A stretch of 64,000 nucleotides of DNA from Anaerolineae bacterium (GCA_039810085.1 JBDHWG010000024.1:5689-69688); one strand, 5' to 3'; shown: positions 21,004 through 29,501, numbered from the stretch's first letter. Translations and numbers: made by a program. The notes: generated by a model from the letters alone, not told the origin.

Positions 21004-22182
21004 TCACGGGATCGGTATTGTCTGTGTCGGTGTCGGCGTTCCCGTTGGAGCCTCGGCCGGCGTCGTCGCTGTGACCGTGGGCGTCCCGGTCACCGTCTCC
21101 AGCGGCACGGTTGTCGCCGTTGCCGTTGTCGTCACGGTGGCCGTCTCGGTGACATTTGCCGTCGGCGTCGTGCTTACAGTCGGTGTCGCCGTCGCCGCTA
21201 CCGTTTCGGTCGCCGTCACCGTCGCCGTCGCCGTTTGGGTGAAGGAAGCCGTCGGCGTGCCGGTGGATGTCGCCTGGGCGGTTGGCGTTGGCGTATGCGA
21301 TGGCATCGCGGTGCTCGTCAGTGACGGGCCAGGCGTAATAGTCGCCGTTGGCGTGCTGGTGCAACGCGGCGGTGGTGTCGGAAGCGGCAACATGCCAGTA
21401 AAGGTGTTGTTGCCCTCGTTCGGCTCGACGACATCGTTGTTACTATCGACAACGATGGTGACCGATTGCCCAATAGGCACATACTCACTGGTAACGATGT
21501 AAGCAACGCTGCCGGCCGCCAGTCCCGGAAGAGTAGCGAACGACGTCCCGTTGATTGACACGACGAACGAGCCAGCCGCGCTGCGGCCGATGTTGGCGAT
21601 GTCGACGTAGAGCAACAGATTGGAATGGGAAACCGCACAACCACCAGTATAGCCTTGCAGGCTCACCCGAACATTGGCAATCGTGAGATCCGGCCCATTC
21701 CAGTCCACTGCCTTCTCGATGAGAGGCAGGTAGAGATGGTGGCTCTGGGCTGCTCCTCCGGTGGCCGTGGGTGTGACCGTCATCGTTGTCACCGGCGGGG
21801 CCAGCGTGGTCGTGCCGGTTGGCGTCGGAGATGTTGGGGTGGTTGGCGTGATGGTCGTGGTTGCTGTGGTCGTGCCCGTGAGCTCCGGGGCCATTGTCCC
21901 AGTCACCGTCGGGGTAACAGTCTCCGTGATTACTGCTGTTGTCCCTGTGGCCGTAGGGGTGACGGTTGCTGCGACGGTGGTGGCCGTGGCTGTGGCCGTT
22001 GTCGTGGCTTCACCAGCGGGGACTGTCGCCGTGGGTGTCTCTGTCTCCGCCGGACCGGCCTGATTGTTGCCTTGCTGGACCTGGGCGTCTGCCGCTGGTC
22101 CACTCCACGCGGCCACGGCGCTGTTCGCGCCCCACGCCAGGAGCAGGCCGAGCAGGGCCAGGGCGGCAATGCTTCTTCGCAT
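21004..22182 (-). CDS. secreted Thr/Pro-rich protein with CARDB-like domain
   Basis: signal peptide; GPDLTIANVRVS...IANIGRSAAGSFVVSINGT CARDB pattern; long T/P/A repeats. Confidence 0.6.
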   Translation of the reverse strand: MRRSIAALALLGLLLAWGANSAVAAWSGPAADAQVQQGNNQAGPAETETPTATVPAGEATTTATATATTVAATVTPTATGTTAVITETVTPTVTGTMAPELTGTTTATTTITPTTPTSPTPTGTTTLAPPVTTMTVTPTATGGAAQSHHLYLPLIEKAVDWNGPDLTIANVRVSLQGYTGGCAVSHSNLLLYVDIANIGRSAAGSFVVSINGTSFATLPGLAAGSVAYIVTSEYVPIGQSVTIVVDSNNDVVEPNEGNNTFTGMLPLPTPPPRCTSTPTATITPGPSLTSTAMPSHTPTPTAQATSTGTPTASFTQTATATVTATETVAATATPTVSTTPTANVTETATVTTTATATTVPLETVTGTPTVTATTPAEAPTGTPTPTQTIPIP

Positions 22183-24074: not shown

Positions 24075-24842
24075 TTACCTTTTTGTGGTTGGCTGCGTAA
24101 CGAAGCGGTAGCCTCGCCCGCGGTCCGTGATGATGTAGCGCGGGCGATCGGGATCAGGCTCGAGCTTCTGGCGAAGCCGCCAGATGTAGAGCTTGACGTA
24201 CTTGCCGCGGTCGTCCTCGCTCTGCTCGTCGCGCCAGACCTGCTCGACAAGCTCATCGGTTGTGAGCGTCTGGTTGGCGCTCTCGACGAGGTAGAACAGC
24301 AGGCGGCGCTCCGTGGCTGTCAAGGCGACGGCCTGACCGCGCACCAGGACGCGCCAACCGGCGGCGCTGATGCTGAGATGGGCGTCCTCATACAGCGCAG
24401 TAGTTGACGGCAGGGTAGCCACCGGCTGGGTGCGGCGTAGAACAGCCGCGATGCGCAGTTCCATCTCGCGGAGGCTGAAGGGCTTGGACAAGTAATCGTC
24501 TGCGCCCAACGACAAGCCGTTGACACGGTCGTTCGTCTGCGTGCGAGCCGACAGGATGATGATGGGAACATCCCACCGTTGGCGAATGCGACGGCACAGG
24601 TCCCAGCCGGTGGTGTCGGGCAGCATGACATCCAGCAAGATGAGATCGGGCATCTGGCCCTGGAGCCAATCCATCGCCTCTTGTCCGCTGTGAGCTTGCT
24701 CCACTGTGTAACCGACGTGGCGCAAGAACGTGCCGACCATCTCGGCTAGTGGACGGTCGTCGTCCACCACGAGAATTGAACGAAGGAGTGGAGCAGTCGT
24801 TGTCATGGTTTGCACTGTGCGTGGTTTTGACGTGATCAACAT
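24075..24842 (-). CDS. OmpR-family response regulator (REC + winged helix)
   Basis: VVDDD...DLILLDVMLPD receiver motifs; C-terminal RGRGYRF winged helix. Confidence 0.8.
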   Translation of the reverse strand: MLITSKPRTVQTMTTTAPLLRSILVVDDDRPLAEMVGTFLRHVGYTVEQAHSGQEAMDWLQGQMPDLILLDVMLPDTTGWDLCRRIRQRWDVPIIILSARTQTNDRVNGLSLGADDYLSKPFSLREMELRIAAVLRRTQPVATLPSTTALYEDAHLSISAAGWRVLVRGQAVALTATERRLLFYLVESANQTLTTDELVEQVWRDEQSEDDRGKYVKLYIWRLRQKLEPDPDRPRYIITDRGRGYRFVTQPTTKR

Positions 24843-24856
24843 TGACGGGTTGCCCC

Positions 24857-24900
24857 CTAAAAAACGCTGGGGAGGCGCCCCCCGGATTGGCCTCCCCAGC
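24857..24900 (-). terminator. canonical intrinsic terminator on minus strand between HK and RR genes
   Basis: perfect 11-bp GC-rich stem GCTGGGGAGGC/GCCTCCCCAGC, 13-nt loop, followed on minus strand by UUUUUU; only 15 nt upstream of RR start. Confidence 0.55.
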
Positions 24901-25088
24901 GGTGAGCAGGGAGGTATCCTTAGGTAAGCCTCCCCGCTATGGGTGATATGCGAGAGCTAGCGCCGCACTTGGGACCTATCCCCAGTGTTCCGTTCTCCGG
25001 ACGGGGACCAGTTCAAGGTCACTGTCTAATCTCATCATACACCAGCAAGTTTACGAACCATATTAAGATGCAGCCCCACAATGAGGAA

Positions 25089-26267
25089 TTAGGAAAACTC
25101 GTTGTCGGCATCGAACGTCGGCAAGGTGACGTGGAAGGTCGAGCCTTTGCCAACCTCACTCTCGAACCAGATGCGCCCGCCGTGCAGCTCAACCAGGGAA
25201 CGGGTGATGCTCAAGCCCAGTCCTGTACCCGGCGCGTCCGTCTGAGCCGCCGTTCGAGCACGGAAGAAACGGTCGAAAATCCGGCCCTGCTCCTCGCTTG
25301 GGATGCCGATGCCATCATCTGTCACGCTCACCTCGATATAGTGTGGCTCCGAGGCGAGCGCCACGCGAATATGGATGTGCCCGCCGAACGGCGTGTACTT
25401 CACGGCGTTGCTGACCAGATTGCCTAGAATCTGCGTCACTCGCTTTGGGTCGCACAAGGCCAGCGGCAGAGTGCCATCGCTACCCATCGTGACGAGCAAC
25501 TTGCGCGTCGTAATCTGTGGCTCGAAGTAGGCGATGACGTCTTGCGCCAGGCGAACGATGTCGAGTGGACGCAGGGTGAGTTGCAGACGGCCAGCGTCAA
25601 TGCGCGTTATCTCTAGCAGCTCGTCAATAATCGCCTGCAGGCGCTGGGCGCTCTCATCCATAACGCTGAGATAGTGCCGCTGCTCGGTTGTCAGCGGGCC
25701 CGGCAGCTCCTCCAGGAGCATTTCCAGGAAACCACTCAAAGTCGTCAAGGGTGTGCGTAGCTCGTGGGCCGCCACTTCGATGAACTGAGACTTGAGGTCG
25801 TCCAGGTGATGCAGCTCAATATTTGCCGCCTCCAGGGCCAGGTTTCGCTGCGCCAGCTCATCTCGCAGGAGACGAAGTTCATTCCGGCTGTGCGTGACTT
25901 GTTGCTGGGCAACGCCCTGGCTTGTGACGTCCTCGAGCGTGACAAACAGCCCGGGCTGTGGCAGCCCTTGATTCGGAAACGGAGCAGATTGAAGGCTCAC
26001 CCGCAGATAGATTGTGTGGGCGTCTCCCATCTCTCGATTGATCCACGGCAGCTCTAGCTGCGGGCTACGCTCCTCGGCGACGCTGGTCATGACCGCTTCG
26101 TAGCCAATCAGTTCCGGCAAGACATCTGTGACGGGCATGCCAAGGTGATCAGGGCACAGGTAGGCGCTCGGCGCGCCACCGACCTCCACGATACAGAAGC
26201 GGGCATCGGTGATCGCGTAGGTGATGCGAAGAGCGGACAGGAGGCGTTCAAACAGACTGGGTGTCAT
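25089..26267 (-). CDS. cytoplasmic PAS-domain sensor histidine kinase
   Basis: HisKA H-box AAHELRTPL; HATPase N/G boxes (LGNLVSNAVKYT, DDGIGI, GTGLGLSI). Confidence 0.8.
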   Translation of the reverse strand: MTPSLFERLLSALRITYAITDARFCIVEVGGAPSAYLCPDHLGMPVTDVLPELIGYEAVMTSVAEERSPQLELPWINREMGDAHTIYLRVSLQSAPFPNQGLPQPGLFVTLEDVTSQGVAQQQVTHSRNELRLLRDELAQRNLALEAANIELHHLDDLKSQFIEVAAHELRTPLTTLSGFLEMLLEELPGPLTTEQRHYLSVMDESAQRLQAIIDELLEITRIDAGRLQLTLRPLDIVRLAQDVIAYFEPQITTRKLLVTMGSDGTLPLALCDPKRVTQILGNLVSNAVKYTPFGGHIHIRVALASEPHYIEVSVTDDGIGIPSEEQGRIFDRFFRARTAAQTDAPGTGLGLSITRSLVELHGGRIWFESEVGKGSTFHVTLPTFDADNEFS

Positions 26268-26315
26268 GGGTAGTTGGATAGCAGGCCATGGCGGCCTTTG
26301 GCCTGCCTATCTCCT

Positions 26316-26843
26316 CTAGTCGCCCGCCACAAGCAGGCGGCCGAGATGTCGGAAAGTCTCCTCGACCTGATCCCCGGTTTTGGCGCTCGTCAGGTAACAC
26401 GACGTGTGCAGTGAGGCGGCAAAGGCATCCACTTCCGCGTACGGCAGGCGTGCGTCCGGCAGGTCGATCTTGTTGACGGCGACGACGAAATGGGCGTTCG
26501 GCGCAACACGCCGCATGTCATCGACATAGGCGGTCAGACCAGCCAAGGTGTCAGGGCGCGTCACATCACAAACAAGGATAGCGCCCGCTGCGCCACGCAG
26601 ATAGCTCGCCCGCATGGCGCTAAACTCCTCGCTACCTGCCAGGTCCCACAGAAGCAATGCCAGCTCGACAAGCCCATCTCGCACGGGCAGGACGACCGTC
26701 TTGCGGCTGACCTTGACACCGATAGTGGCAAGGTACTTGTCCTCGAAGGCGTTGTAGACAAAGCGCCGCACCAGGCTCGTCTTGCCGACGGCAAAATCGC
26801 CAAGCAGGCAGACCTTCTTGCTAATCCTGGGCATGGCGCTCAC
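26316..26843 (-). CDS. Ras/Rab-like small GTPase (prokaryotic Ras-superfamily) lacking catalytic Gln
   Basis: G1 GDFAVGKTS, switch I ATIGV, G3 WDLAGSEEF (Ser in place of Gln61), G4 NKID, G5 SAK. Confidence 0.75.
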   Translation of the reverse strand: MSAMPRISKKVCLLGDFAVGKTSLVRRFVYNAFEDKYLATIGVKVSRKTVVLPVRDGLVELALLLWDLAGSEEFSAMRASYLRGAAGAILVCDVTRPDTLAGLTAYVDDMRRVAPNAHFVVAVNKIDLPDARLPYAEVDAFAASLHTSCYLTSAKTGDQVEETFRHLGRLLVAGD

Positions 26844-28180
26844 GGCCCCGCTGTCGGTGTAACTAACTCTGGTGGGATGGGGCTAGTGGTTCCGACCCAC
26901 TCGGCCTGCACCCACCCCACAATCTCGGCCCCGCCGGGCGGCGTCCAGCGTATCTCAAACCAGTCGCCGGCCTGGGCAAGAATCTGCACCGTCCGGCCGC
27001 GCTCCACGGCGAAGTTCAGGCGCTCCGAGTCCAGCGACGGGCCGCTGCGCAGCCAGGAACTGCCGGTCATGACGGCGAGAACGGGGGATTGCGTCGGGGT
27101 CGAAGTCGGACTTGATGTTGGCGTGAGCGTGGCCGTCGCCGTGGCTGTGGCCGTAGCCGTGGCCGTCAGGGTGGGCGTCGGCGTCGCCGTCGGTGTGGGC
27201 GTGGCAGTCGGGGTCGCTGTCGGCAGCGGCGCAAGCGCAGCCTGTACGGTTCGGATGGTCCAGACGCTGCCAAGGCAGGTCATGCAGATGCACACCGTCA
27301 GAATTCCAGTGGCGACAAGCAGGACCCGCTTCTGCGTTCGGCTCAAGCCCGCTGGCGGCGCGGGCGCAGCCGCCGAGCCAACATCGAGCAGCGGGGCGAG
27401 CCGGTCCGCCACCCCGACCAGATCGGCTGTGTTACCGGAATAGCGCCGCAACACCTCGCCGTAGGCAAAGTCGATGCCGAAGAGGGTCTCGCGCAGTTGA
27501 TTACGAAAGCCCGTCGGCTCGACGCCCGTTGTGACGGCCGCCAGGTAGGCCAGGCGTGACGATTCGATAAGGATGCACTGGTTGCCGTAGAGAATCTGGT
27601 CGATGTCTCCCTCGCGCCCCTGTCCAAACGTGTCCTGGACGAAGTCGCGGATGGCCGTCAGCATCCCGCTGATGACGTCCGAGTCGGACGCGGTCTCTGG
27701 GTGGCGTGAGACGTGGCTGAGCAACAGCCCGGTCTCGCGGTGGATGAGAAACACCTCGTCCACGGCGAAGGGTAGCGCCTGGCGCAGAAGCATCTCGCCC
27801 GATGAGACGCCCCGCAGTCGCCCCTGGAAGCGATGCCAGACGGCCCCAGGTTTGAAACTCGTCCGCATCTGCGCGTCAACGGAGCGCGCCAGGTCGCGGA
27901 TGGCCTCGGCCACGGCGCGCACGACGAGACCGCCGATAATCGGGTAGAGCGCCTCGATCATCTCATCGCGGTCCTCGCGGATCTTGCGGCGAATCGCGTC
28001 ACCGAGGATAGGCGACACCATCGCCGCCAGCGCATCCGGGTCGTTCACCCGGCTTTCTAGCTCGCCGATGCGCCGTCGGTCGCCGCTAAACAGGATGTCC
28101 TGGAGCGTCTCGAACTCGGAGCCGTCCTCGCCAAACGCGCCGGACCCGGTATCGGGTCCGGCGTCGGTGGTCTGTGCCAC
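26840..28180 (-). CDS. single-pass membrane protein: cytoplasmic Roadblock/LC7 (MglB-like) domain, TM helix, Thr/Pro linker, extracellular bacterial SH3 domain
   Basis: VDEVFLIHRETGLLLSHV...DVISGMLTAIRDF...QCILIESSRLAYLAAV fits Roadblock pattern; TM VLLVATGILTVCICMTCLGSVW; SH3 segment SWLRSGPSLDSERLNFAVERGRTVQIL...GWVQAEWV; ATGA overlap with GTPase gene. Confidence 0.55.
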   Translation of the reverse strand: MAQTTDAGPDTGSGAFGEDGSEFETLQDILFSGDRRRIGELESRVNDPDALAAMVSPILGDAIRRKIREDRDEMIEALYPIIGGLVVRAVAEAIRDLARSVDAQMRTSFKPGAVWHRFQGRLRGVSSGEMLLRQALPFAVDEVFLIHRETGLLLSHVSRHPETASDSDVISGMLTAIRDFVQDTFGQGREGDIDQILYGNQCILIESSRLAYLAAVTTGVEPTGFRNQLRETLFGIDFAYGEVLRRYSGNTADLVGVADRLAPLLDVGSAAAPAPPAGLSRTQKRVLLVATGILTVCICMTCLGSVWTIRTVQAALAPLPTATPTATPTPTATPTPTLTATATATATATATLTPTSSPTSTPTQSPVLAVMTGSSWLRSGPSLDSERLNFAVERGRTVQILAQAGDWFEIRWTPPGGAEIVGWVQAEWVGTTSPIPPELVTPTAGP

Positions 28181-28189
28181 GATGGCGGC

Positions 28190-28597
28190 TTAACTCCCGA
28201 TGCCCAGGTTCTTGAACATGTCGGCGAGGGAGCCGCCCGCCTTGAGCTGGTTGCCCATCTCGATGAATAGCTCGCCCAGCGCCAGGCGGTCTACTTTCTC
28301 GTCACTCAGACGCTCAGCGGTATGCCGCAGCTCGCCGCGCAGGTCGTCGTCAGCCTGGCGCGCCTCCTTGCGCAGCGTTTGCAGCTTCTTGTCCTGGTCG
28401 CGGCCCTGGTCGGTAAGCTGCTCGTTCAGGTTATCGAGCGACTGCTGGAGGCGCTCCAGGTCGCGCTCGATGGCGTGGAATCGCTGCGCATACTCGCGCA
28501 TCTGGCCGCCAAAGATGATGTCGCGTATGCGGTCTACTTCCTTCGGCGACGGTGTCGCAGCCGCAGGAACCTGCTCGGTCATAGTACCCTCCTTCAA
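28190..28597 (-). CDS. small coiled-coil protein; N-terminal DIIFGG motif shared with adjacent membrane protein
   Basis: 135 aa, heptad-rich; ATGA overlap with upstream RR gene. Confidence 0.45.
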   Translation of the reverse strand: MKEGTMTEQVPAAATPSPKEVDRIRDIIFGGQMREYAQRFHAIERDLERLQQSLDNLNEQLTDQGRDQDKKLQTLRKEARQADDDLRGELRHTAERLSDEKVDRLALGELFIEMGNQLKAGGSLADMFKNLGIGS

Positions 28598-29322
28598 CGA
28601 AGACCCCGGGGCGCTGCCCCATTGATTTTGCCCGGCGCTGGAAAAAGGTAGCCCATGCCCCGCTCCGTGATCAGATAGCGCGGCTGAGCGGGGACAGGCT
28701 CGATCTTCTGGCGGACGCGGTGAACGTGGACGCGCAGGCTATCCTCCGCGACCTCCTCCAGGGGCCACAAGCGCCGCAGGAGAAAGTCGGTCGTCACGGT
28801 ACGTCCAGCGTGACGCATCAAGATATACAGCAGCTTCGTTTCTGTCGGCGTCAGGGAAACGGGCTGCTGGTTGACGGTGGCCGTCTGACGCGCGAAATCC
28901 ACGGCCAGGCGGTCATCGACGGTGACGACAGGCTCCAATGTATACGCGAAATCGCCGATGCGGCGCAGGACGCGCTCCACCCGCGCTACCAGCTCGCGCG
29001 GGCTGAACGGCTTGACGATGTAATCCTCGGCGTAGCGCTCGATGCCGGCGATGACGGTGTCTTCGTCGTCCACCGCCGTGAGAAGGATGATGGGCAGGTC
29101 GGAGAACTGCTGCACGGCGCGGCAGAACCCGAAGCCGTCCAGCACCGGCATGCGGAGGTCCACAATCGCCAGGTGGGGCAGGCCGCGCTGACCGATCAGG
29201 CTCAGGGCCACGTCGCCAGAGGGCGCCGTCCAGACGGCATAGCCCGCGTGCTCCAGACGGGAGCGCACGAGCAGAAGGATTTCGGCGTCATCATCCACAG
29301 CCAGGATTCGTTGGAGCGTCAT
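28594..29322 (-). CDS. OmpR-family response regulator
   Basis: ILAVDDD...AIVDLRMPVLDG receiver; C-terminal winged helix RGMGYLF; start at MTLQRIL. Confidence 0.8.
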   Translation of the reverse strand: MTLQRILAVDDDAEILLLVRSRLEHAGYAVWTAPSGDVALSLIGQRGLPHLAIVDLRMPVLDGFGFCRAVQQFSDLPIILLTAVDDEDTVIAGIERYAEDYIVKPFSPRELVARVERVLRRIGDFAYTLEPVVTVDDRLAVDFARQTATVNQQPVSLTPTETKLLYILMRHAGRTVTTDFLLRRLWPLEEVAEDSLRVHVHRVRQKIEPVPAQPRYLITERGMGYLFPAPGKINGAAPRGLR

Positions 29323-29501
29323 TGGGCGGCACAAGATGCGCGCGTCAACACCCGCCGTCCCCACAGGCGACGCCGACGCAGCTAGAGCATCCCTTGGACT
29401 AAAAATAGAAACCCCCTAGACGGGATGATACCAGCGAAGCACCATCAAGTCAAGGGGAATTTCTGTGCCTTGCGCAAATTGGTCAGGCAGGGAAGCTGCG
29501 G

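Follow-up and report, generated by a model that had tools for sequence, protein, structure and literature searches.

The six-gene cluster at 24075-29364 of the window, by which we mean the whole 64-kb stretch of Anaerolineae DNA that was analysed, matches part by part the 'Group 1 Rup' module and is no novel type of system. This module is known from a computational study of 2014 (Wuichet & Søgaard-Andersen, Genome Biol Evol; PMC4316618). It comprises the coiled-coil protein DUFY, the protein DUFX, in which a TM helix separates an unknown domain from a wall-binding one, a Rup GTPase devoid of the catalytic Gln, and an output protein marked by a special N-terminal domain. In the window, too, the core seems to be DUFY-DUFX-Rup plus an output protein. 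Taken together, the evidence is in our view best explained by a Group 1 Rup module in its Anaerolineae (Chloroflexota) form, operating by the mechanism proposed below, and we consider this reading probable. A preliminary description of this DNA had treated such GTPases as merely noted in surveys, but the four-gene module, its kinase output and a proposed mechanism had already been published in 2014 (PMC4316618). We found no experimental or follow-up work on Group 1 Rup members in the literature searched.

Organisation and conservation of the cluster

All six open reading frames are encoded by the minus strand, and their coordinates agree exactly with those that the preliminary description had given. 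The features are as follows.

28594..29364, minus strand: RR1, OmpR-family response regulator, the operon's first gene (Response_reg 83.9 bits, Trans_reg_C 79.6 bits)
28190..28582, minus strand: DUFY, 130-aa cytoplasmic coiled-coil protein (ATG with ribosome-binding site; hhalign; synteny)
27341..28180, minus strand: DUFX, cytoplasmic part (conserved helices and a predicted longin/roadblock-fold domain)
27236..27340, minus strand: DUFX, transmembrane helix, residues ~281-315, N-terminus inside (Kyte-Doolittle and model)
26840..27235, minus strand: DUFX, outer part, linker and probable SH3b
26316..26843, minus strand: Rup GTPase, 175-aa Rab-like small GTPase (Pfam Ras and Roc; G1-G5 intact)
25089..26267, minus strand: output protein, soluble histidine kinase (HisKA 77.6 bits, HATPase_c 117.7 bits; no TM segment)
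24843..25088, minus strand: 246-nt kinase-RR2 spacer with conserved hairpins (alignment with three relatives; consensus fold)
24075..24842, minus strand: RR2, second OmpR-family regulator (Response_reg 107 bits, Trans_reg_C 77 bits)

The gene junctions had to be revised in part. ATGA overlaps had been claimed for both the regulator/coiled-coil and the membrane-protein/GTPase junctions; the latter reads GTGA, with the GTPase start codon overlapping the DUFX stop, and the former is a TTGA that forms an overlap only with a TTG start. A much better start for the coiled-coil gene is the ATG at 28582, which is preceded by the ribosome-binding site GAAGGAGGG; this leaves an 11-nt gap to RR1, the stop codon of which is overlapped by the ribosome-binding site. 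The gap between the coiled-coil and membrane-protein genes is 9 nt instead of the reported 10, and the 48-nt gap ahead of the kinase gene has the length originally given. The true start of RR1 may be the ATG at codon 15 (29322). Upstream of RR1 we detected a promoter-like site (29453-29425), which is weak evidence, since chance would yield 1.1 such sites and we found one.

Gene-order conservation, which the preliminary description had named as a check, is borne out in a synteny sample of 80 genomes from Anaerolineae and other Chloroflexota: the order regulator > coiled-coil protein > membrane protein > GTPase > kinase is kept in most of them. The kinase is a kept neighbour in 67/69 loci and the GTPase in 67/76, and DUFY lies directly upstream of the membrane protein in 66/78, confirming the coiled-coil protein as a member of the cluster. 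Across the divergent genomes compared, the membrane proteins are 36-76% identical. Homologues of all four core parts occur in the same order at loci of Nostoc, Mesorhizobium and KSB1, where the outer SH3b is replaced by another wall-binding domain (OmpA, BON or RodZ_C) and a cyclase, a σ54 activator or a separate kinase serves as the output. The defence-system models of PADLOC gave no match for RR1, DUFY, DUFX or the GTPase; the only matches were generic, namely to the kinase in its ATPase region and to RR2, mainly in its receiver region.

The GTPase and its predicted membrane platform

With Pfam scores of 119 bits for Ras and 96 bits for Roc, the protein at 26316-26843 is a Ras-superfamily GTPase, as first proposed. 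Its motifs GDFAVGKTS, T40, WDLAG, NKxD and TSA are each kept in 66-72 of 73 orthologues, and the Asp of G3 (WDLAG) is present in 72/73. The position of Ras Gly12 is occupied by Phe17 (Phe or Tyr in 70/73 orthologues) and that of Ras Gln61, following DLAG, by Ser71 (Ser in 55 and Gly in 14, together 69/73; Gln in 0/73). The GTPase retains a full nucleotide-binding site without either of the canonical catalytic residues, and the combination of Phe and Ser at the two positions may leave it with hardly any GTP hydrolysis. We found no lipidation motif in it. Among proteins of solved structure, Rab6, Rab22, Rab31, Rab7 and a Thorarchaeota (Asgard) Rab are its best relatives (E ~1e-25), and it is 46% identical (E 5e-42) to the 'Rab family GTPase' of a Mesorhizobium DUFY-DUFX:OmpA-Rup locus. 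Judged from these sequence comparisons, the GTPase is Rab-like and not MglA-like; the direct kinship to MglA/MglB that had been suggested is not supported, since the G3 Asp retained here is absent from MglA and the best solved relatives are Rabs.

The cytoplasmic part of DUFX consists of long, conserved, Arg-rich helices (residues 20-122) followed at residues ~127-270 by a domain for which an AlphaFold model predicts a longin/roadblock fold. In this fold, an α-β-α sandwich, a β-meander of five strands is covered by a single helix on one face and by a pair of helices on the opposite one, in the topology ββαβββαα (longin) or αββαβββ(α) (roadblock). The modelled domain has this architecture, and in fold comparison its longin matches are stronger than its roadblock matches. 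The model suggests that the cytoplasmic core of DUFX shares the longin/roadblock fold that regulates eukaryotic Rab and Rag GTPases. Longin/roadblock dimers are platforms that bind small GTPases on their single-helix face (Levine et al. 2013), and the predicted single helix of the DUFX platform carries the near-invariant SGMLTAIRDF, the most conserved motif of the family. We found no sequence-level tie of DUFX to longin or roadblock: Roadblock_LC7 (PF03259) gave no match at E <= 0.1 in searches with Pfam and NCBIfam, and Robl_LC7 is recorded for none of 120 listed DUFX homologues. Of the Roadblock domain originally ascribed to the membrane protein, the cytoplasmic GTPase-platform fold survives as a model, but the sequence searches do not confirm the domain.

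The single-pass topology proposed earlier for the 446-aa protein is supported: the Kyte-Doolittle window exceeds 1.6 at residues 284-310 only, and the modelled helix spans residues 281-315. R, K and R flank the helix on its N-terminal side, against a single R past it. The outer part comprises a disordered, Thr/Pro-rich linker (residues ~316-366) and a probable C-terminal SH3b (~367-431). On SH3_3 (PF08239), the window copy scores 26.2 bits, slightly below the 27-bit cut-off, which many orthologues exceed. In the family profile the C-terminal domain is SH3_3 in 24/67, OmpA in 16/67 and BON in 10/67, and RodZ_C is also found; the outer domain is thus exchangeable among cell-wall/envelope binders. 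Because it is one of several interchangeable wall-binding modules, a role as an anchor seems likelier than one in ligand sensing, which argues against the surface sensor that had been envisaged. In both Nostoc and Mesorhizobium, tblastn with the cytoplasmic part retrieved 'OmpA family protein' genes that adjoin genes for Rab-family GTPases (E 1e-28 to 1e-32).

DUFY carries two conserved motifs, VDRIRDIIFGxQMRxYxxRF near the N-terminus and KVDRxxLGELFIExG near the C-terminus, and its coiled-coil character is reflected in weak matches to coiled-coil families only (Pfam, NCBIfam). Small proteins at the equivalent position in Mesorhizobium, Nostoc and KSB1 are related to it by hhalign (~97% probability, E ~1e-10).

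The juxtaposition of DUFX and the GTPase could also be read by MglA/MglB logic, with the roadblock-like domain of DUFX acting as the GAP of the GTPase; the pair would then serve at the membrane as a spatial or polarity switch, to which the kinase is only loosely attached. The GTGA overlap of the two genes is in keeping with this, as is the ability of longin/roadblock domains to support GAP activity (Levine et al. 2013). We nevertheless consider it unlikely. The GTPase, with its G3 Asp, does not belong to the MglA family, there is no Robl_LC7 HMM match and longin outranks roadblock; furthermore, the bulky Phe at the Gly12 position speaks against a classical finger-type GAP, as inferred from Ras G12 mutants. 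Nor is the kinase loosely attached, because it is as conserved as the GTPase and its PAS-like domain recurs on other outputs.

Output kinase, regulators and the direction of signalling

The kinase is built of a PAS-like N-terminal domain (residues 1-120) with the motifs PELxGxE, NR and DxT, then Q122, a coiled-coil linker, HisKA and HATPase_c. Its earlier designation as a PAS histidine kinase stands for the catalytic part and, through PAS_4 matches on 25/29 orthologous N-termini (best E 3e-9) and also on homologues, for the family, but Pfam gave no PAS match on the window kinase itself. By hhalign, the N-terminal domain is related to the N-termini of KSB1 σ54 activators (98-99%), to a stand-alone 176-aa Nostoc protein (97.8%) and, less strongly, to a Mesorhizobium cyclase (80.7%). 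Conservation of Q122 reaches at least 90% in Chloroflexota, and the residue aligns with a Gln in the KSB1, Nostoc and Mesorhizobium proteins. Although the catalytic part of the output protein varies, this special PAS-like domain is always present.

Both regulators are of the OmpR type, as had been stated, and are 38% identical to each other. Only 40/71 loci have a regulator upstream of the module, which makes the regulator a variable partner, and one follows the kinase in only 12/60. RR2 is a lineage-specific add-on or neighbour outside the core module; the embedding in a two-component system holds for the kinase and RR1 but does not extend to RR2. The spacer ahead of RR2 holds a conserved AT-rich block directly past the kinase stop and two conserved hairpins with the common arms GGGGAGG/CCTCCC. 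Of these, the second (24883-24860) runs into a U-tract, has three compensatory pairs in its stem in the consensus fold and is terminator-like, in good agreement with the intrinsic terminator placed here before; no Rfam family matched the spacer. RR2 thus sits behind a conserved terminator- or attenuator-like element.

We propose the following circuit. DUFX, probably dimeric, would together with DUFY be fixed to the cell wall via SH3b and present its longin/roadblock platform to Rup at the membrane, thereby controlling the nucleotide state or location of the GTPase, be it as an exchange factor, a GAP, a scaffold or simply an anchor. The PAS-like domain of the soluble kinase would read the state of Rup, and may also donate a catalytic Gln, as suggested in 2014; this readout would alter kinase or phosphatase activity on RR1 and, in turn, transcription. 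RR2 would be transcribed or attenuated separately, as an add-on in the Anaerolineae lineage. Information could flow from wall to GTPase to kinase, or from kinase to GTPase to envelope.

The second direction is central to an inside-out wiring in which the PAS-like domain, by donating the missing Gln, is the GAP, and the GTPase is the output of the kinase, acting via DUFX and DUFY on the cell envelope. This extends the hypothesis of Wuichet & Søgaard-Andersen 2014 (PMC4316618) and draws on the conserved Q122 directly past DxT, on its aligned counterparts in the other phyla, on the lack of a Gln in the GTPase itself, and on outer DUFX domains that bind wall and are not ligand-binding sensor domains. 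However, Q122 stands at the start of the signalling helix, a position at which structural reasons often favour Gln. The outputs—kinase, cyclase, σ54 activator, GGDEF/EAL—are all classic signal emitters, with which a PAS-like domain that receives the GTPase signal fits better. We regard the inside-out wiring as doubtful.

An actinobacterial conservon (CvnA-D), a membrane complex of membrane kinase, Roadblock protein, DUF742 protein and MglA-like GTPase, is a very improbable reading. The Streptomyces conservon and the mycobacterial mfp conservon likewise encode a histidine kinase together with a small GTPase and a roadblock-fold protein in a single operon, but the domain tests contradict the assignment: the cluster has no DUF742 or Robl_LC7 match, and its kinase is soluble, without HAMP or a hydrophobic segment, whereas that of conservons is a membrane protein. 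In addition, the conservon GTPase is an MglA Group 2 member and not Rab-like, its roadblock protein is free-standing, and the response regulator present here is absent there. Least probable of all is the chance adjacency of an ordinary two-component system and an unrelated GTPase operon, which the 48-nt gap and the separate RR2 would in principle allow, but which is contradicted by synteny (the kinase comes after the GTPase in 67/69 loci, although the genomes are divergent) and by the recurrence of the kinase's N-terminal domain beside Rup GTPases in three other phyla, with other catalytic outputs.

Under the favoured reading as a Group 1 Rup module, Rup gains concrete candidate partners, namely the predicted platform on DUFX and a dedicated PAS-like receiver domain shared by kinases, cyclases and σ54 activators; a GTPase without a known role is thereby placed in a defined circuit, the readable output of which is RR1-dependent transcription. 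That DUFX is a genuine membrane-anchored longin-type platform binding and regulating a bacterial Rab-like GTPase is a tentative proposition of low probability. If true, DUFX/Rup would be the first bacterial pair of a longin and a Rab-like GTPase, feeding a His-Asp phosphorelay, and the pairing would either predate the eukaryotic lineage or could have been transferred into it with the GTPase; it thus bears on the origin of eukaryotic GTPase regulation. The module is very common: clustering of DUFX at 50% identity gives over 5000 clusters, and the Chloroflexota by themselves account for over 500 GTDB species. It points to a large unexplored class of envelope-linked bacterial signalling.

Comparison with known systems

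Group 1 Rup proteins are single-domain GTPases of ~158-181 aa with eukaryote-like G1-G5, including the G3 Asp; they are reported to be the closest prokaryotic relatives of eukaryotic Rab/Ras/Rho/Ran, and Mesorhizobium loti mlr3243 is listed among them (PMC4316618). The fourth gene encodes a kinase or a GGDEF/EAL protein with an invariant Gln in its N-terminal region (PMC4316618). The cluster shares the four parts in their common order (DUFY>DUFX>Rup>output), a GTPase of fitting length (175 aa) with eukaryote-like G1-G5 but no G3 Gln, and a DUFX with cytoplasmic domain, TM helix and wall-binding domain. The histidine-kinase output likewise has a special N-terminal domain and a conserved Gln, which may be the one in the 2014 logo. 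Every part is homologous to the Nostoc and Mesorhizobium loci. The differences are an SH3b behind a Thr/Pro linker in place of OmpA, and the OmpR regulators before and after the module; moreover, the Chloroflexi of the 2014 list (Chloroflexus, Roseiflexus) have the order Rup>DUFY>DUFX without a wall-binding domain (PMC4316618). The longin/roadblock fold of DUFX and the σ54-activator or cyclase outputs are not in the 2014 description.

In common with MglA/MglB of Myxococcus and Thermus, the cluster has a small GTPase gene beside one for a longin/roadblock-class protein, and links to two-component signalling. MglA, however, lacks the G3 Asp of the Rab-like GTPase, and MglB is a soluble, stand-alone, Pfam-recognised roadblock dimer, whereas the DUFX domain forms part of a membrane protein, escapes detection by HMM and ends in longin-like helices. 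Finally, we compared DUFX with the eukaryotic and Asgard longin platforms Mon1-Ccz1, TRAPP Bet5/Trs23, SRα and a Lokiarchaeota longin. These have no sequence similarity to DUFX, the predicted platform domain of which is, in contrast to theirs, bacterial, tethered to the membrane and tied to a His-Asp relay.

Gene order, junctions and the spacer before RR2

All six genes run head to tail along the minus strand, spanning 24075-29364, exactly where the preliminary description had placed them, and Pfam backs its assignment of two OmpR-type regulators, a Ras-like GTPase and a histidine kinase.

28594-29364, minus, RR1, OmpR-type regulator heading the module (Pfam), 256 aa
28190-28597, minus, small coiled-coil protein (DUFY), ORF of 135 aa; 130 aa if translation starts at the favoured ATG, 28582
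26840-28180, minus, membrane protein (DUFX), 446 aa
26316-26843, minus, Rab-like small GTPase (Rup), 175 aa; Pfam Ras 119 bits, Roc 96 bits
25089-26267, minus, kinase, 392 aa; Pfam HisKA and HATPase_c
24843-25088, minus, kinase-to-RR2 spacer, 246 nt
24075-24842, minus, RR2, second OmpR-type regulator beyond the kinase (Pfam), 255 aa

The junctions call for some correction. ATGA overlaps had been proposed at two of them: that between the DUFX and Rup genes is GTGA, and that between RR1 and DUFY exists only if translation begins at TTG. In CGT TGA AGGAGGG TACT ATG, the ATG at 28582 is preceded by a strong ribosome-binding site; a DUFY start there leaves an 11-nt gap after RR1 and yields a 130-aa product. 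DUFY and DUFX are separated by 9 nt rather than 10, and the 48-nt gap ahead of the kinase had been measured correctly. A promoter-like site 5' of RR1 (29453-29425) is given little weight since a single site is close to the chance expectation. The window holds no tRNAs, no Rfam families and no paralogues of the module outside the cluster, and PADLOC returned no defence-system match for the core proteins.

A terminator had been placed between the kinase and RR2, and a terminator-like GC-rich hairpin with a U-tract does lie at 24883-24860. Alignment of the spacer with its counterparts in the three closest relatives (L001 9022-9281, L002 9021-9215 and L003 9040-9304) revealed a conserved AT-rich block past the kinase stop, ATCTTAATATGTTTCTTAA...TATGAT, and two conserved hairpins with identical arms, GGGGAGG/CCTCCC, the second of which, terminator-like and followed by the U-tract, has three compensatory pairs. 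Judging from these arms, an alternative pairing could form between the 3' arm of hairpin one and the 5' arm of hairpin two, which would give an attenuator-like leader. Rfam assigns the spacer to no family (BjrC80 appears at noise level only). Given its terminator-like and attenuator-like hairpins, the spacer fits control of RR2 separate from the core operon.

Conservation of the module among relatives

DUFX has at least 720 full-length homologues, every one from Anaerolineae-type metagenomes, and its relatives are encoded in more than 500 GTDB species genomes. We searched 80 fetched loci with the six window proteins (tblastn), counting neighbours only over loci with enough sequence; DUFX identity across the 80 is 36-76%. 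The small protein is encoded immediately upstream of DUFX in 66 of 78 loci and the GTPase immediately downstream in 67 of 76 (anywhere in the locus in 73/76), while a kinase lies within 2.5 kb in 67/69. A regulator stands upstream of the module in 40/71 loci and follows the kinase in 12 of 60. On these counts the conserved unit is (RR1)-small protein-membrane protein-GTPase-kinase, the clustering of which exceeds chance; of the six genes originally grouped together it is RR2 that falls outside, being confined to the nearest relatives plus a few other loci.

In some relatives (L014, L007, L011 and L059) the module is directly followed by additional kinase-like fragments or by another GTPase and kinase pair; in L014, for instance, the genes run GTPase, kinase fragments, GTPase, kinase. 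These arrangements suggest that the output end was duplicated locally.

A predicted longin/roadblock platform in DUFX

DUFX had been described as a single-pass protein with a Roadblock domain on the cytoplasmic side and an SH3 domain outside. The single span holds: the sole hydrophobic segment covers residues ~284-310, and the full-length AlphaFold model (alignment of 46 sequences, mean pLDDT 76.6) places a helix at 281-315. In this model residues 20-122 form long helices and residues ~127-270 a compact α/β domain, in which most 10-residue blocks reach a pLDDT of at least 90; the transmembrane helix is followed by a disordered Thr/Pro linker and a confident SH3-like barrel at 367-431. The C-terminal SH3_3 match scores 26.2 bits, slightly short of the 27-bit cut-off.

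The Roadblock domain failed its HMM check: neither Roadblock nor longin, nor any other Pfam or NCBIfam family, matches DUFX residues 1-360 at E <= 0.1. The underlying idea survives as a predicted fold. A Foldseek search of the PDB with the full-length model retrieved longin and roadblock proteins at E 2e-4 to 1e-2 (COPI ζ, Ccz1, AP σ, TRAPP Bet5, LC7, a Streptomyces roadblock protein and MglB). We then modelled residues 118-280 alone from a broader alignment that included OmpA-type and RodZ_C-type relatives of other phyla (pLDDT 83, pTM 0.75). Against longin structures this model scored 12.4 for Sec22b, 11.3 for VAMP7, 11.1 for a Loki longin, 10.5-10.8 for Ccz1 and Mon1 and 10.3-10.4 for TRAPP, over 115-130 aligned residues; against roadblock structures it scored 9.0-9.2 for MglB and ~8.3 to 10 for other roadblock proteins, over ~75-105. 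The longin pattern is ββαβββαα and the roadblock pattern αββαβββα (Levine et al. 2013). The modelled order, α-ββ-α-βββ-α-α, can be read either as longin with a short extra N-terminal helix or as roadblock with an extra C-terminal helix. The link to both families is structural only, because a profile of the core domain found nothing meaningful among all PDB sequences (one match, E 1.1).

The single helix of the sandwich carries SGMLTAIRDF, the most conserved motif of the whole DUFX family. Known longin and roadblock dimers bind the GTPase on the single-helix face (Levine et al. 2013), and by analogy we infer that SGMLTAIRDF may mark a GTPase-binding surface of DUFX.

Some further features of DUFX and its neighbours were recorded. 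From the first long helix of the window copy (residues ~41-60, 28000-28060) about seven residues are missing (consensus ELDDLER), a stretch that is present in almost all DUFX orthologues and equals two heptad-sized turns. Homology between DUFY and the DUFX N-terminus was considered and rejected: only 11 residues align (hhalign probability 9.5%, E 0.0034), and for this reason the likeness is recorded as a motif. The shared stretch, [LV]xx[LI]R[DE]I[LI]F[GS], found at DUFY 15-25 (28508-28540) and DUFX 22-32 (28085-28117) and followed in each by a long helix, may serve both proteins in docking. A minus-strand ORF of 392 aa at 21004-22182 combines a signal-peptide-like start with very long Thr/Pro-rich repeats (TPTxT) of the type seen in the DUFX linker; the exported proteins of this genome seem to favour Thr/Pro-rich linkers.

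The GTPase, its partner kinase and the Group 1 Rup module

The preliminary description had invoked MglA/MglB logic, and this kinship does not hold for the GTPase. The solved structures nearest to it are those of Rab6, Rab22, Rab31, Rab21, Rab7 and a Thorarchaeota Rab (E ~1e-25), and it retains the G3 Asp that MglA proteins lack (Wuichet & Søgaard-Andersen 2014, PMC4316618), so it is not an MglA. Near-invariant across 73 orthologues are G1 GD[FY]AVGKTS, the switch-I Thr, G3 WDLAG, G4 NKxD and G5 TSA. Two catalytic positions depart from the canonical: that of Ras Gly12 (residue 17) is Phe or Tyr in 70/73, a feature shared by the Mesorhizobium relative, and that of Ras Gln61 is Ser or Gly in 69/73 and Gln in none (the window copy has Ser71). 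GAP-assisted hydrolysis by Ras is blocked when the Gly12 position holds a bulky residue. Since the catalytic Gln is also missing, Rup GTPases of this kind may, by analogy with Ras, be very slow or unusual hydrolases. The GTPase sequence has no C-terminal lipidation motif.

The kinase is soluble, having no hydrophobic segment. The PAS domain attributed to it has no Pfam match in the first 150 residues of the window copy, but PAS_4 is found on the N-termini of 25 of 29 orthologous kinases (best E 3e-9). A word-index search with the N-terminus alone gave seven proteins; the orthologues compared were cut from the fetched loci. The domain has a signature of its own, PELxGxE, NR, Y, P and DxT, then Q122 and, usually, Q126 where the linker helix begins. 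By hhalign, this domain matches the N-termini of KSB1 σ54 activators (98-99%), a stand-alone 176-aa Nostoc protein (97.8%) and, more weakly, the N-terminus of a Mesorhizobium adenylate/guanylate cyclase (80.7%), and the Gln following DxT is retained in all of these. PAS-like domain forms lie beside Rup GTPases at L081 8333-9700, L083 9704-11080, L085 7120-7650 and L086 8414-9484.

The cluster matches a known type of module, that of the Group 1 Rup GTPases, the closest prokaryotic relatives of Rab/Ras/Rho/Ran, which have eukaryote-like motifs and no G3 Gln (Wuichet & Søgaard-Andersen 2014, PMC4316618). The four-gene neighbourhood reported for them comprises a coiled-coil cytoplasmic DUFY; DUFX, in which a TM helix and OmpA often come after an unknown conserved domain; the GTPase; and an output protein, either GGDEF/EAL or a histidine kinase, whose N-terminal region carries an invariant Gln that, the authors proposed, might serve catalysis in trans. 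Their table gives DUFY>DUFX(:OmpA)>Rup> in cyanobacteria, proteobacteria, Nitrospira and Bacteroidetes and Rup>DUFY>DUFX in Chloroflexus and Roseiflexus. In the literature searched, no follow-up turned up for Rup systems or for the locus tags listed in this table.

A profile of the cytoplasmic part of DUFX collected 5413 clusters (50% identity) at E <= 1e-3, and a Pfam scan of 67 diverse members found C-terminal SH3_3 in 24, OmpA in 16, BON in 10 and RodZ_C in others. In KSB1 the order is small protein, DUFX:BON:OmpA or DUFX:RodZ_C, Ras-family GTPase and σ54 activator. A tblastn search of plasmids picked out, in Nostoc and Mesorhizobium, genes annotated "OmpA family protein" (E 1e-28 to 1e-32), each lying between a hypothetical protein on the upstream side and a "Rab family GTPase" on the downstream side; next come, in Nostoc, the 176-aa protein and an ATP-binding protein and, in Mesorhizobium, the cyclase. 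The window and Mesorhizobium GTPases are 46% identical (E 5e-42) and share GxFAVGKTS and WDLAG; the small protein aligns with its upstream counterparts in KSB1, Nostoc and Mesorhizobium (hhalign ~97%, E ~1e-10). By sequence comparison, every part of the module is homologous across these loci, and the wall-binding ends of DUFX and the catalytic ends of the outputs are each interchangeable.

We propose that DUFX, with its core of predicted longin/roadblock fold, would sit at the membrane with SH3b as its tether to the wall, probably as a dimer with DUFY, and would act as a platform that sets the position of Rup or its nucleotide state. That state would be sensed by the dedicated PAS-like domain, perhaps also completing the active site of Rup with the Gln, and kinase output would then be directed towards RR1. 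As every external domain is a binder of the wall or envelope and none is a ligand-binding sensor domain, we read the outer part of DUFX as an anchor or reporter of envelope state, not a chemoreceptor.

The module type is already known from comparative genomics and is therefore not categorically new. What is new is the Anaerolineae variant, distinguished from the published Group 1 modules by its SH3b end and regulator genes; the addition of σ54 activators and cyclases to the GGDEF/EAL and histidine kinase outputs typical in the 2014 paper; and the predicted longin/roadblock platform in DUFX, which supplies a missing candidate regulator of Rup.
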